From assembly GCA_963719515.1 (NCBI GenBank), contig CAVRCJ010000007.1, positions 32,001 to 96,000 on the forward strand: a stretch of DNA of 64,000 nucleotides, in the 5' to 3' direction. The position numbers are program-made. Source of the stretch: an uncultured cyanobacterium. GTDB lineage: Bacteria; Cyanobacteriota; Cyanobacteriia; CAKZMO01. Positions 21,001 to 24,000 of this stretch are shown piece by piece. How positions within the stretch are numbered: position 1 is the stretch's first letter; each line of letters begins with the position of its first letter.

Positions 21001-24000
21001 TTTGCCGACCATACCCGGCGTCTCGCCTTTGGGAATGAGCTTTTTTGCGGGCGCGGTGATGGCGGCAATCGCCACCGGCCTGACGATGCTGCTGCTTAAG
21101 GAGACGCTCCCTCAAGATGATTGCGCAGATTCTTTGAAGCTGAGCTGGAAAATGTTTGGCTTTGGGAAAATCATCAGCTCCATTCGCCGCCCTTGCCTGG
21201 GGCAGGTGTTTTTGCTCACCTTTTTGAGCGGCTTTACCTTCACCATTTTCACGTTTGCCTTCCAGCCCTTTTTCCTCAACGTGCTGGGACAGGATGCCCA
21301 AACCCTGGCAATTCTGTTTACCATGATTGGCGTTGTTGGCGTGCTGACGCAGATTTTTGCGGTGGAGCCGCTGACGAAGCGGTTTAACCTAGCGGATATC
21401 ATGTTTGTGGCGATCGCGGTGCGGGGGCTGCTCTTTTTGCTGATGCCGGCGTTCCCCACGGTAGCGGTGTTTGTGGGACTGCTGGCGCTCCTAGGAGTAG
21501 TGAACTCTTTTCCCATGCCGCTGATCAGCTCTATCTTGAGCAACAACAGCGGCGATCGCGAGCAGGGAGAGGTGATGGGCATCAATGCCTCCTACTTGAG
21601 CATCTCGAATGCGATCGGTCCGGCCACGGCAGGGCTGCTGGTGAGCTTTGGCTACGGGACGCCGTTTTGGGTGACGGGGGTGCTGACGCTGCTGACGGCG
21701 GGGTTTGCACTACACCTGAAGCGGGTAGCGGACTGCGACAAGAAGGTGGCTTAGACCCATACTAGTGGCGACAATACAATTGAGCCACCCCGCGAGCATG
21801 AACGGGGTGGCTCACTCAGTAAAACCATTCTCCAAGGTGAGAACGGCTGTACCGGAGCGCTCACAGTTGACGCGGCGATCGCGACGCGAAGGCAATGGCT
21901 CTATCGCCGTATTACAACATCGTTTTATAGCACGATGGTCAACCGCTACGCCGCTAGCTCACTCGCCACGGTGAAGCTGACGTCTGCTACCGCACCGCTT
22001 CCTGCCAGGAATACCTCCATACGGGCCACGATATCCCCTTCGCCCAGGGCAAAGGTAGCGTCAGCCTCTGCCTCTAGAGGCAGACCTAAAGCGACCAAAC
22101 CAGCGGTGTCCAAATCGCCTGCGATCGCGTCAACAGCGCCGCTCACGTCGGTGAGTTCGATGTCAGCCGTGTCCAAGAATTCCTCGTCAAAGAAGAGGCT
22201 GGTGACGCTAGAGGAATCGCTGCCCCCCACAACCACAAACTGACTTGCTCAATGTGTAGCCTAGAGCACAAACGATATAATCAATTTATGCAGGTTTCTG
22301 AGCAACTTCCCATCAGCTTCTTATGGTCTGCTCAGAGTTCAGTCAGGAGCGGCTCAGATAGCTCCGGCACTATAGAAACTGTAGACAACAGGCAAATCGC
22401 TTCATTCAGCTTCGACCGCTGCCTGCAATGCGCCCCCAATTTTTAAGGAGATTTCTGTTATGAAACGTATCTTTACCGCCGTTCTATCCATCGCCGCGAT
22501 CGCCGCCTTTACTGCCCCCGCTGCTGCGCTCTCTGGCCGCCACGCTGAAGAGTTCCACGAAGGCCTAGGCAATAAGCTCTCGGGTCGCTTTGAAGAAGAG
22601 TTTCGTGAAGGTCTGGGCAACAAGCTCTCGGGTCGCTTTGAAGAAGAGTTTCGTGAAGGTCTGGGCAACAAGCTCTCGGGTCGCTTTGAAGAAGAGTTTC
22701 GTGAAGGTCTGGGCAACAAGCTCTCTGGCCGCTTCGAAGAAGAGTTCCGTGAGGGTCTGGGCAATAAACTCTCGGGTCGCTTTGAAGAAGAGTTTCGCGA
22801 AGGTCTAGGCAACAAATAGAGGTTTTACCTGAGGTAAAAAGTTCGAGCTACCACACAGACATAGACACAATTCCAGGGCCTCAAAACCCTGGGATTTTTT
22901 TGCGGGTTAGCGCGTCGGGCGCTGCTGCACCAGATAGCTCAACACTTGCCCCTGAGCCGGTGTGATTCTAATGCCCTGCTCCCGGATCGCAATCAGCGGG
23001 GTCCACAGTCGTCTTTCGACGTACTGCAGCAGGTGCAGTCGGGCGTTCGCACTAGCGAAGGCTTTGCCTTATCGCATCCTGGACGTCTGCGGGGGAGCCG
23101 ATGATGATGTGCCTCAGGTGTGAGTCTCCGCCTGATTCTGAAGGATCGACACAGCTGGGGGCTGGGGACGGCTCGATTAACACTGGCGCGATGGGTGCTG
23201 TGTCTGGCGCGGAGCCGGGTACATCGCTGGGCAGCGCGGGCTGTGCCGCCTCTTCGGTGGAGGGCGACAGATAAGTTTTAGGTAACATGAGGGACTCCTG
23301 TTTACGTTGGGTTAGGAGTCCCCCAAAAACCGGTCATCACCAAACGTTTACGCGGTTCGAGATGACACAGGTAAAATTACCTCAGTTCTTCCCGACAGCT
23401 GTAACCTGTCGTGTGGGATTAGGGGCCGCATGTTGTCTGCATCAACATGCGGCTCCGCCCGACCGAATTCTTGGGAGACTAAGCCATGGAGACCACGGCT
23501 ACAGCAACTGAGGATAATACATTTGGTCTTTGGAGGCAAGGTGTCTGATGGTGGCGATCGCGTCTAAGCGTTAGGCAATTCCCGACGGGTTGAAGTGGAG
23601 CCGATGATGGCAAAGGGCAGAGCGTGAAAGCGGCTGAACTACTGCGACTCTATGAGGCGGGGCGGCGGGCCTGGATTCGCGCTACTTCTGTCGCGTTTGC
23701 GGCAACGGGTGGCACGAGCTTTTACCGCGCTAATCTGACGGATGCTAGTTTTGCGGGGGCTCAGCTTCGGGGTACGGATTTTCAGCAGGCGACATTGACT
23801 GGTGTAATTTGGCGAGAGGCTGAGGGGCTAGCCTGGGTGCGATTGGATGAACGGCTTGAATAGCTGTAAAAGCTAAACTTACTGATTTGTGGTCAACAAG
23901 AGGAAGGCGATCGCGGTTTTTGGTTGGCGATCGCTTCGATGCTCCGAAGGACCTTCGAGGGCGTAGTCTATTGCGAACGAACGTCCTTCGCTGTTCTAGA

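Follow-up and report, generated by a model that had tools for sequence, protein, structure and literature searches.

An undescribed, lineage-restricted family of mini-proteins, built of a leader and tandem copies of a 16-residue unit and predicted from sequence to be exported by two routes, is represented by one gene (g02028) in the window, the whole 64,000 nt stretch of DNA from an uncultured cyanobacterium that was analysed here. Strong purifying selection acts on the units. Cleavage of the exported chains into peptides, at the Lys-Leu junction between units, is slightly favoured over an intact flexible repeat protein and is given a probability of roughly 40 %.

The window gene

The initial annotation had described the window gene as an export leader followed by six head-to-tail 16-residue units and nothing else, and translation bears this out, giving a 23 aa Sec-type signal, six units and a stop. 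The features are as follows.

22445-22450, + strand: Shine-Dalgarno-like AAGGAG, 9 nt ahead of the ATG (direct sequence reading)
22460-22819, + strand: ORF, leader plus repeats, 119 aa (translation)
22460-22528, + strand: Sec-type signal peptide, 23 aa, MKRIFTAVLSIAAIAAFTAPAAA (judged by eye from the translation)
22529-22576, + strand: unit 1, LSGRHAEEFHEGLGNK, of the 'HA' unit type, one copy (unit comparison)
22577-22816, + strand: units 2-6, LSGRFEEEFREGLGNK five times (0 non-synonymous and 0-8 synonymous codon differences)
22577-22720, + strand: units 2-4, three 48 nt copies with the same DNA (0 nucleotide differences)
22817-22819, + strand: TAG stop, immediately following Lys16 of unit 6 (sequence and translation)
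22869-22906, + strand: intrinsic-terminator-like hairpin with a 10-pair stem, then a T-run, TTTTTGCGGG

By eye, the signal peptide has a basic n-region (MKR), a hydrophobic core (IFTAVLSIAAIAAF) and an A-x-A site (TAPAAA↓L). The three paralogues in the genome carry AGGAGG, TAGGAG and AAGAG at the same distance from the start as the AAGGAG of the window gene. Tandem Repeats Finder reports a period of 48, 5.6 copies, 90 % matches and a score of 433. In protein, units 2-6 are identical to each other and unit 1 differs; given that units 2-4 are also the same in DNA, the array appears to have expanded recently. The computed mature chain is 96 aa long (11.0 kDa; 11,024 Da monoisotopic) with a net charge of -6, and the computed masses of single-unit peptides are 1866.92 and 1779.87 Da. 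The neighbouring genes encode an MFS transporter, Dps and an RTX/PPC protein; no Peptidase_C39 ABC transporter adjoins the window gene, which has a Sec signal in place of a double-glycine leader. A candidate NtcA site upstream was rejected on inspection, the spacing being wrong.

Paralogues and export genes

A six-frame motif scan of the whole genome found the unit motif in only four genes, the window gene and its three paralogues. These (g00080, g01771 and g04004) have three units each, and their contig coordinates and leaders agree with the initial annotation. The leader of g04004 is a short double-glycine (GG) leader of 24 aa, ELSDEQLQDVAGG↓L, with hydrophobic residues at -4, -7 and -12. 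As had been reported, this gene lies among bacteriocin-type export genes: TIGR03797 is on the same strand, and TIGR03896, TIGR03794 and TIGR03796 are divergent, the last with a Peptidase_C39 domain and scoring 1119.7 bits against a cut-off of 853.3.

The earlier description of this leader as Nif11/NHLP-style needs correcting: it is short and no full domain of that kind, with only the last ~20 model positions matched, below the cut-offs. Among seven GG-type members scanned, TIGR03798 (Nif11-like) scored 14.1-26.6 bits in five (cut-off 32.3) and TIGR03793 (NHLP) 14.1-15.7 bits in six (cut-off 50.9). The likeness to the NHLP/Nif11 families, as far as these are described in the sections of Haft et al. 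(2010; PMC2887384) drawn on here, lies in the transport trio TIGR03794/03796/03797 plus TIGR03896 beside the GG-type paralogue and in the leader end, ...L..V.GG. Unlike those families, the leader is ~24 aa rather than a 70-80 aa domain and fails both cut-offs, and the HlyD-like membrane-fusion protein at the GG-type locus is only ~200 aa.

Ten of the 13 loci compared have recurring export genes, and in an all-against-all ORF comparison of these loci only TIGR03896, the short TIGR03794 and ABC genes recur across genera. Synteny of the Sec-type genes holds within the genus only. The absence of a modifying enzyme, claimed initially, was confirmed to the extent that none recurs beside the family genes: around 12 GG-type loci the export genes alone recur, and the 13 loci share no recurring maturase, be it rSAM, LanM, YcaO, ATP-grasp or another.

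Distribution and composition of the family

All 17 genomes of the order contain the family, with several paralogues each, compared with 1 of 400 genomes sampled elsewhere in the phylum. The order as a whole keeps several paralogues of a leader-plus-repeats gene, with strongly selected modules and two predicted routes out of the cytoplasm. The catalogue assembled here holds 99 members, 72 of Sec type and 27 of GG type, with 2-17 units; GG-type members have only 2-3. Nine candidates were left out of it (P0055, P0056, P0061, P0062, P0072, P0075, P0076, P0077 and P0078). Of these, P0056, P0061, P0062, P0072, P0075 and P0078 were large hits of the profile search described below; P0061 and P0062 carry beta-solenoid-like 16 aa repeats (SVQSFIAGSGNRIxxG) and were judged chance matches on F..G.GN, and P0072 contains a FliK domain.

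The initial annotation had counted 48 relatives at E<=1e-6. Relatives do exist, those with names coming from Elainellaceae and Leptolyngbyaceae MAGs, but the count obtained here, from 8000 candidates scored, was at least 40, and at least 45 at E<=1e-3. A profile search of 1.84 billion representatives gave 46 matches at E<=1e-3, mostly of the same family. The reported rise of protein length in 16 aa steps was seen again (55, 71, 87, 103, 119, 151, 187 and 312 aa), as was the lack of a Pfam or NCBIfam family, none matching the window protein above E = 0.029. A PDB sequence search with the unit profile returned 0 matches at E<=10, the best score in an ESM Atlas search was 0.82 and gave no lead, and a literature string search with peptide strings from the units returned 0 papers. 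The words 'repeat' and 'tandem' are absent from Wang et al. (2011; PMC3140520).

Most members consist of a leader and whole units and nothing else; some have pro-regions or tails. Unit 1 follows the A-x-A site flush, with the same n/h/c layout, in 50 of the 72 Sec-type members, and the protein end is flush with residue 16 of a unit in 53 of 99 members. Where pro-regions occur, the residues preceding Leu1 vary (E, S, Q, G, N, R). Some members end in a conserved module or tail of a distinct kind, SDP..VG..F.G in 13 and ..L..[FV]GNG in 7. The commonest first-unit type, found in 30 of 99 members, has HA at positions 5-6. The tails were also inspected for the cyanobactin recognition signal AYD, and only one has SYD.

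Selection on the units

Pooled over within-gene unit pairs of 47 genes, pS is 0.675 and pN 0.118, a ratio of 0.175. For g01771 (pS 0.79, pN 0) the initial annotation had given 6-8 synonymous and no non-synonymous differences per pair of units; the zero stands, and the synonymous codon differences are 6, 7 and 10. The like pattern claimed for units 2-6 of the window gene and for g00080 is present in both, with no non-synonymous differences in either and, in g00080, 0-2 synonymous ones.

Conserved residues, by position, include N15 (98 %), G12 (97 %), G14 (96 %), L1 (94 %), R4 (93 %) and K16 (83 %), figures that are biased at positions 7-15 by the regex used to collect the units. The 'variable' positions are more uniform inside one protein than across proteins: at position 10, 0.49 of within-protein and 0.12 of between-protein pairs agree, and at position 5 the values are 0.73 and 0.22, respectively. 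Cys is absent from the units and Thr nearly so, and each has Ser, four Glu, Asn and Lys; the median net charge of the mature chains is -1.25 per 16 aa. On inspection, the positions do not fit EF-hand or RTX calcium loops, and a PatS-type RGSGR was rejected, as 'LSGR' is not conserved and Gly3 is present in only 53 % of units.

The statement that the precursors hold many identical 16-mers is true of a minority, which includes two of the paralogues in this genome. All units are identical in only 4 of 99 proteins, so that many identical 16-mers are the minority case, and units 2 to n are identical in only 12 of 64.

The unit junction

Lys16 is present in 201 of 231 internal units (87 %) and in 42 of 46 units before a tail (91 %), but as the C-terminal residue in only 28 of 50 (56 %). 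For Lys16 where something follows versus at the C-terminus, Fisher's exact test gives p = 2.7e-6, on counts that are not phylogenetically independent. Paired within proteins, 16 have Lys in all internal units and a last unit without it, and 1 shows the reverse. The retention of Lys16 before following sequence, with relaxation at the protein end, is new here, and it points to a role of that residue at the junction between units. The weaker constraint could also be simply an effect of the chain's final position. The predicted cut of both leader types falls exactly at Leu1 in 76 of 78 cases. Gln ends 23 of the 231 internal units and about half of the units in a 17-unit protein; internal units with a final Gln occur in one lineage.

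The window gene encodes a signal peptide and then tandem units that are nearly identical, with no further part, as expected of a polyprotein precursor. Its product would be a pre-protein that is exported without modification and consists of an export leader and a series of complete 16-residue modules. The Sec signal would be cut at A-x-A↓Leu1, leaving an acidic six-module chain of 96 aa outside the cytoplasm; in g04004, the 24 aa double-glycine leader would be removed at GG↓Leu1 by the adjoining C39-peptidase ABC exporter. Each module is predicted to form one short amphipathic acidic helix, from about Ser2 to Gly12 and with hydrophobic residues at 1, 5, 9 and 13. After the helix comes Gly-x-Gly-Asn-Lys↓Leu-Ser, the stretch with the highest conservation, which runs across the unit boundary. 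We infer that this boundary is a processing site, where a putative periplasmic or extracellular protease would cut after Lys16 and release 16-mers of ~1.8-1.9 kDa, or longer pieces where Gln replaces Lys. Copy number would then set the dose, with paralogues differing at positions 5, 6 and 10, and the peptides may, at a guess, be a signal within or between filaments. A 1.9 kDa peptide exported by Sec would probably remain in the periplasm.

In favour of cleavage are the retention of Lys16, the predicted leader cuts at Leu1 and the absence of a modelled fold; against it are the junctions with Gln, the pro-regions and tails, the varied residues that precede Leu1, the small number of proteins whose units are all identical, and the lack of a linked protease. 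No protease is linked to the family genes in the neighbourhoods compared, and this 100 %-complete genome has no C13 legumain. The six S1-family matches in the genome look like ordinary Deg/HtrA-sized genes and are not specific. Cutting of the internal junctions by the C39 domain was rejected on inspection, the junctions having no hydrophobic residues at -4 and -7.

A further-reaching version of the cleavage reading is doubtful. In it, the family would be a bacterial counterpart of pro-hormone and alpha-factor precursors: polyproteins exported by Sec or PCAT and cut at Gly-Asn-Lys↓Leu into unmodified acidic 16-mers, the copy number (2-17) giving the dose and positions 5, 6 and 10 marking distinct signals in one filament, possibly through a shared periplasm.

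Predicted structure and a possible intact chain

AlphaFold models were of low confidence both for the six-unit window protein (mean pLDDT 40.6, pTM 0.24; 23 alignment rows) and for a 17-unit relative (mean pLDDT 41.8, pTM 0.16; 12 rows). Each model has one ~10-residue helix per unit and no confident repeated tertiary structure of a solenoid or folded repeat protein, which is weak evidence with alignments this shallow. A self-association model with four copies of a 48 aa mature paralogue scored 0.02, against a mark of 0.42, and gave no verdict.

These models suit a flexible protein as well as a precursor, and a quite plausible alternative is that the mature chain stays whole. By analogy with EbfG1-4 of Synechococcus elongatus (see below), it could be a flexible string of short acidic amphipathic helices on Gly-Asn-Lys-Leu hinges, acting as a multivalent periplasmic, cell-surface or matrix protein. 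The terminal modules or tails and the differing first unit (HA in 30 of 99) resemble the capping units of a repeat protein; units are non-identical in 95 of 99 proteins; and the lack of a protease in the neighbourhoods, and of C13 in the genome, fits a chain that is not processed. A family that is core to the order and multi-copy in 17 of 17 genomes is also what would be expected of a housekeeping envelope or matrix component, and EbfG1-4 show that unmodified structural GG-motif cargo occurs in cyanobacteria, according to the parts of the source used here (PMC4997328). However, one function would have to tolerate a 2-to-17-fold range of units and GG-type versions with 2-3, the best-conserved residues lie in the predicted linker and not in the helix, and Lys16 is relaxed at the chain end only. 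Additionally, the same portion of that source reports that no other cyanobacteria have homologues of mature EbfG1-4 (PMC4997328). If the chain does stay whole, it would represent a small, disordered protein of the envelope or matrix that is new in kind.

Modified peptides and bacteriocins as unlikely readings

It is improbable that the genes encode RiPP precursors with several cores, whose units are modified before or after export by an enzyme elsewhere in the genome, for example by cross-linking Glu to Lys or Ser to Glu, or by altering the invariant Asn. Each unit does offer Ser, four Glu, Asn and Lys, and the GG leaders are similar, below threshold, to the part of Nif11/NHLP and other RiPP leaders that lies next to the cut. 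Peptides carried by the NHLP transport trio are usually modified ones, and precursor genes frequently lie apart from those of their enzymes, in the account given in the sections used of PMC2887384. Yet among linked genes at the 13 loci no maturase is encoded with the precursor or recurs near it, 72 of 99 members have a Sec signal and not a recognition leader, the units are without Cys and almost without Thr, and the ~24 aa leaders reach 14-27 bits against Nif11/NHLP cut-offs of 32.3 and 50.9. Multi-core RiPP precursors such as plesiocin-type graspetides, microviridins and cyanobactins, with repeated cores behind one leader, are common in cyanobacteria and depend on a linked modifying enzyme and recognition sequences. 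In the present family no such enzyme recurs, and most members have a Sec signal.

It is very unlikely that the products are class II-type bacteriocins, unmodified and lethal to competitors. The GG-type genes do adjoin a bacteriocin-type export set, and GG-type members match NF038167 ('CTB family bacteriocin') below threshold and over no more than the leader region. Against this, the mature chains are acidic, no conserved immunity-like or small membrane-protein gene was found adjacent to the family genes, the family is not patchy but occurs, as several paralogues, in all genomes of the order, and the units are under strong purifying selection where toxins usually diversify. A GG or sec leader within one family would also fit, as in class IIa (pediocin-like) bacteriocins, some of which have a GG leader cut by the ABC transporter and others a Sec signal cut by signal peptidase, according to the sections consulted of PMC3546714. 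The initial annotation had regarded two export routes and no modifying enzyme as the novelty; both are seen here (72 Sec, 27 GG; no enzyme conserved nearby), but the principle of one family of unmodified exported peptides with either leader type already exists in class IIa, as described there (PMC3546714). As portrayed in the same sections, class IIa peptides are single-copy, cationic, disulfide-containing antimicrobials of Gram-positive bacteria with immunity genes (PMC3546714), whereas this family is acidic, Cys-free, repetitive and cyanobacterial.

Relation to other known systems

To our knowledge, cyanobacterial ribosomal peptides are nearly always discussed as modified natural products, and the roles of unmodified GG-motif cargo have barely been studied, EbfG being the one worked example known to us. 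EbfG1-4 are small unmodified GG-motif proteins exported by the C39 exporter PteB for biofilms in Synechococcus elongatus PCC 7942 (Parnasa et al. 2016; PMC4997328). Likewise, the present family includes unmodified double-glycine cargo beside a peptidase-containing ABC transporter and has several paralogues; EbfG proteins are described as not being antibiotics. Unlike in this family, no tandem repeats and no Sec-type relatives are reported for EbfG in the parts of that paper drawn on here (PMC4997328). The window gene, unlike EbfG, uses Sec, and a biofilm role for its family would be by analogy.

Fungal KEPs and alpha-factor-type precursors, as presented in the portions used of PMC6339444 and PMC7329392, share with this family a signal peptide, tandem (near-)identical units, a basic junction residue, varying copy number and the absence of any other domain. 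They are eukaryotic and have a dibasic KR junction and a known protease, Kex2 (PMC6339444, PMC7329392), whereas the junction here has a single Lys, sometimes Gln, and its cleavage is a proposal. If the modules are released, the family would be a clear example, in bacteria, of a multi-copy precursor of unmodified peptides, and one through which peptide signalling in mat-forming cyanobacteria could be readily approached. As a minor observation, short contigs from four sediment-metagenome sets, which give no copy number, break within the repeat of the window gene.

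The repeat gene and its paralogues

The repeat gene of the window, g02028, encodes MKRIFTAVLSIAAIAAFTAPAAA followed by one copy of LSGRHAEEFHEGLGNK and five copies of LSGRFEEEFREGLGNK; its repeat array has a period of 48 nt, 5.6 copies and a score of 433 (Tandem Repeats Finder). By eye, the N-terminus appears to have the layout of a signal peptidase I substrate, and the computed mature protein has 96 aa (11.0 kDa, pI 5.1, charge −6), with 24 % Glu and 19 % Gly. Three further genes reported in the initial annotation were all found, and a six-frame motif scan of the entire 5.28-Mb genome revealed no unit outside these four genes.

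Repeat genes of the genome and signals read from the window sequence
22460–22819, +: g02028, ORF of 119 codons, stop TAG
9 nt 5′ of the g02028 ATG, +: AAGGAG
22869–22906, 3′ of g02028: hairpin of 10 pairs, then a T-run
C6:269581–269796, +: g01771, Sec-type leader, three LSGRFEEEFHEGLGNK
C1:91137–91355, −: g00080, Sec-type leader, three LEGRFEEEFFEGLGNK
C14:223082–223300, −: g04004, leader MSEDIKKSQDAELSDEQLQDVAGG, three units

An antisense ORF over the repeats (22402–22815) was dismissed as a mirror artefact, because the relatives and the purifying selection belong to the plus frame. Metagenome contigs overlapping 22702–22746 (runs X3 and X4) continue into variant units, one of H-type and one ending ERGLGNK before a stop; thus, related alleles or paralogues share the same sediment samples. 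Directly downstream, on the opposite strand (23996–25747), lies a gene whose 583-aa product has four matches to RTX calcium-binding repeats and a pre-peptidase C-terminal (PPC) domain. At 18870–20247 (+), 5′ of an MFS transporter gene and g02028, a Dps/ferritin-like gene is followed by one whose 256-aa product combines YflT and ChaB domains with a hydrophobic, Gly-rich central part; the two look like a stress-type pair.

Distribution of the family

A word-indexed search (8000 candidates scored) returned at least 45 relatives at E≤1e-3, the named ones from Elainellaceae or Leptolyngbyaceae MAGs, and a profile of three mature units gave 46 matches at the same threshold against 1.84 billion representatives. 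All 17 whole genomes of the window's order, ten of them at least 90 % complete, contain matches (2 to 18 per genome). In an even sample of 400 genomes from the rest of the phylum the family occurs in one, G158, which has four Sec-type genes, one encoding 312 aa with 17 units. Within this 17-unit protein (L010:1396–2334, G158:C2) unit types ..VSGQGNQ and ..IDGLGNK alternate, and positions 13 (Gln/Leu) and 16 (Gln/Lys) covary. The repeat family is new; no paper was found that contains any of seven peptide strings from the units.

Loci and protein matches were compiled into a catalogue of 99 distinct members after removal of nine large or odd matches (P0055, P0056, P0061, P0062, P0072, P0075, P0076, P0077 and P0078). 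P0055, from the representatives search, has 230 aa, an N-terminal membrane helix, four 14-aa units MSGKEGFYDGSGNK that appear to be a shortened form of the 16-aa unit, and an unrelated C-terminal part of ~100 aa; it has no Pfam match.

Architecture and conservation of the unit

Seventy-two members are Sec-type and 27 GG-type. Unit 1 lies flush after an A-x-A site in 50 of the 72 Sec-type members; a longer leader or pro-region is present in 21, a count that is partly artefact since the catalogue includes fragments and mis-called starts. Units are spaced by 16 aa at 173/187 Sec-type junctions and by 17 aa, with an extra Gly (GNK-G-LSGR), at 29/44 GG-type junctions. GG-type proteins have only two or three units and Sec-type proteins 2 to 17, and 53/99 members end exactly at residue 16. 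Two conserved tails, SDP..VG..F.G (9 Sec-type, 4 GG-type) and ..L..[FV]GNG (2 Sec-type, 5 GG-type), are each found with both leader types. Within class IIa bacteriocins, an unmodified-peptide family, GG and sec leaders are known to interchange (PMC3546714).

Unit conservation over 327 units (the collecting pattern constrains positions 7–15; only positions 1–6 and 16 are unbiased)
Position 15: Asn 98 %, biased
Position 12: Gly 97 %, biased
Position 14: Gly 96 %, biased
Position 9: Phe 95 %, biased
Position 1: Leu 94 %, unbiased
Position 4: Arg 93 %, unbiased
Position 8: Glu 93 %, biased
Position 13: Leu 83 %, biased
Position 16: Lys 83 %, Gln 12 %, unbiased

Positions 10, 6, 5 and 11 are variable. 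The three units of g01771 are the same in protein, yet 6, 7 and 10 of 16 codons differ, all synonymously; units 2–6 of the window gene show 0–8 synonymous and 0 non-synonymous differences. Units 2–4 of the latter are identical in DNA, which indicates recent growth of the array. Pooled within-gene unit pairs from the 47 genes with DNA gave pS 0.675 and pN 0.118 (ratio 0.175); for the four positions that vary most, pN/pS was 0.30. The silent sites thus mark the units as old, and their protein sequence has been kept constant. Gene conversion was ruled out as the main cause of this uniformity, because it would erase silent differences too, and these persist.

Release of peptides or an intact chain

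The repeat chain may be processed into released peptides (probability about 0.4), a reading slightly preferred to an intact chain. Units come in whole numbers and in register with the cleavage sites of both leaders, their count ranges from 2 to 17, and the best-conserved stretch straddles the unit junction; each of these favours release. At 'variable' positions, residues agree more often within one protein than across proteins (position 10: 0.49 vs 0.12), which favours release too. Fungal KEPs are defined by a signal peptide and tandem units with basic junctions (PMC6339444, PMC7329392).

The behaviour of Lys16 also favours release. It is present in 201/231 internal units and 42/46 last units with a tail after them, but in only 28/50 protein-terminal units, the others having Gln (15), Arg (5), Asn (1) or His (1); Leu1 is conserved alike in first (76/78) and internal (213/231) units. 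Sixteen proteins combine all-Lys16 internal units with a non-Lys end vs one with the reverse (binomial p=2.7e-4, overstated as the proteins are related). Lys16 thus matters only when something follows. Such a pattern would be expected of a P1 residue at a processing site, and it is also compatible with an inter-unit contact or with plain weak constraint on the terminal residue.

Against release, no protease is linked to the family genes, legumain was not found in the genome, Gln occupies about half of the junctions in one lineage, pro-regions end in varied residues, and all units are identical in only 4/99 proteins. That the mature chain stays intact is a serious possibility. It is supported by the cap-like first unit and tails and, by analogy, by the one studied cyanobacterial precedent, EbfG1-4/PteB, in which unmodified proteins with a GG motif are required for biofilm formation (PMC4997328). 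The absence of a predicted fold counts towards release: in AlphaFold2 models built with family alignments, mean pLDDT and pTM were 40.6 and 0.24 (window protein) and 41.8 and 0.16 (17-unit protein). Both models have one ~10-residue helix per unit, ~5 residues between helices and no packing. Hydrophobic residues fall at unit positions 1, 5, 9 and 13, and Ser2 and Gly12 would occupy the expected helix-cap places.

Export context of the GG-type genes

On its own strand, the paralogue g04004 is followed after 236 nt by a gene for a 1031-aa TIGR03797 ABC protein (960 bits, cut-off 709). Three genes are divergent from it.

TIGR03896: cyclic-nucleotide-binding 'bacteriocin-type transport-associated protein'
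TIGR03796: C39 peptidase/permease/ATPase (1119.7 bits, cut-off 853.3)
TIGR03794: HlyD-like 'NHLP bacteriocin system secretion protein', ~200 aa, L008:12081–12683 (G000:C14)

The NHLP transport trio is defined in Haft et al. (PMC2887384). Matches of the GG leaders to the models of Nif11, NHLP and further GG leaders cover no more than the final ~20 model positions, and all fall below cut-off; the leader is an ordinary short double-glycine one.

Of the order's 17 genomes, 13 were examined for GG-type genes, and all 13 have them. All ORFs of the g04004 locus and of 12 loci taken from further genomes in the order (11 with a GG-type gene, one with a Sec-type gene) were compared, several of these 13 loci being cut by contig ends. 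TIGR03896 (10/13), the short HlyD-like gene (9/13) and ABC genes (7/13) recur across genera; Sec-type genes have neighbours in common only within a genus. No maturase recurs near family genes in these 13 loci. RiPP precursors modified by an unlinked enzyme are an improbable reading; a bacteriocin is very improbable.

The ~200-aa HlyD-like gene is likewise present in L056, L057, L058, L060, L062, L063, L065 and L067. Only the two ends of TIGR03794 (about 1–55 and 285–420 of its 421 positions) align with its product, which lacks the middle. If that middle is the part reaching the outer-membrane channel, cargo of this exporter may get no further than the periplasm, where the Sec-type paralogues also arrive.

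An RTX-like 449-aa protein is encoded 4 kb from g04004 (L008:4897–6243). The GG-type member at L061:9937–10158 has no export genes nearby; near-identical TnpB (IS200/IS605-type) genes flank it on both sides (5871–7121 and 10484–11734), which suggests that it was moved. Within one genus, GG-type gene pairs, one of each pair with the SDP..VG..F.G tail, adjoin genes for a cellulose synthase catalytic subunit and a flavohaemoprotein-like protein (L057:6735–8963, L058:4989–7217, L059:5166–7403); this adjacency could be mere synteny.
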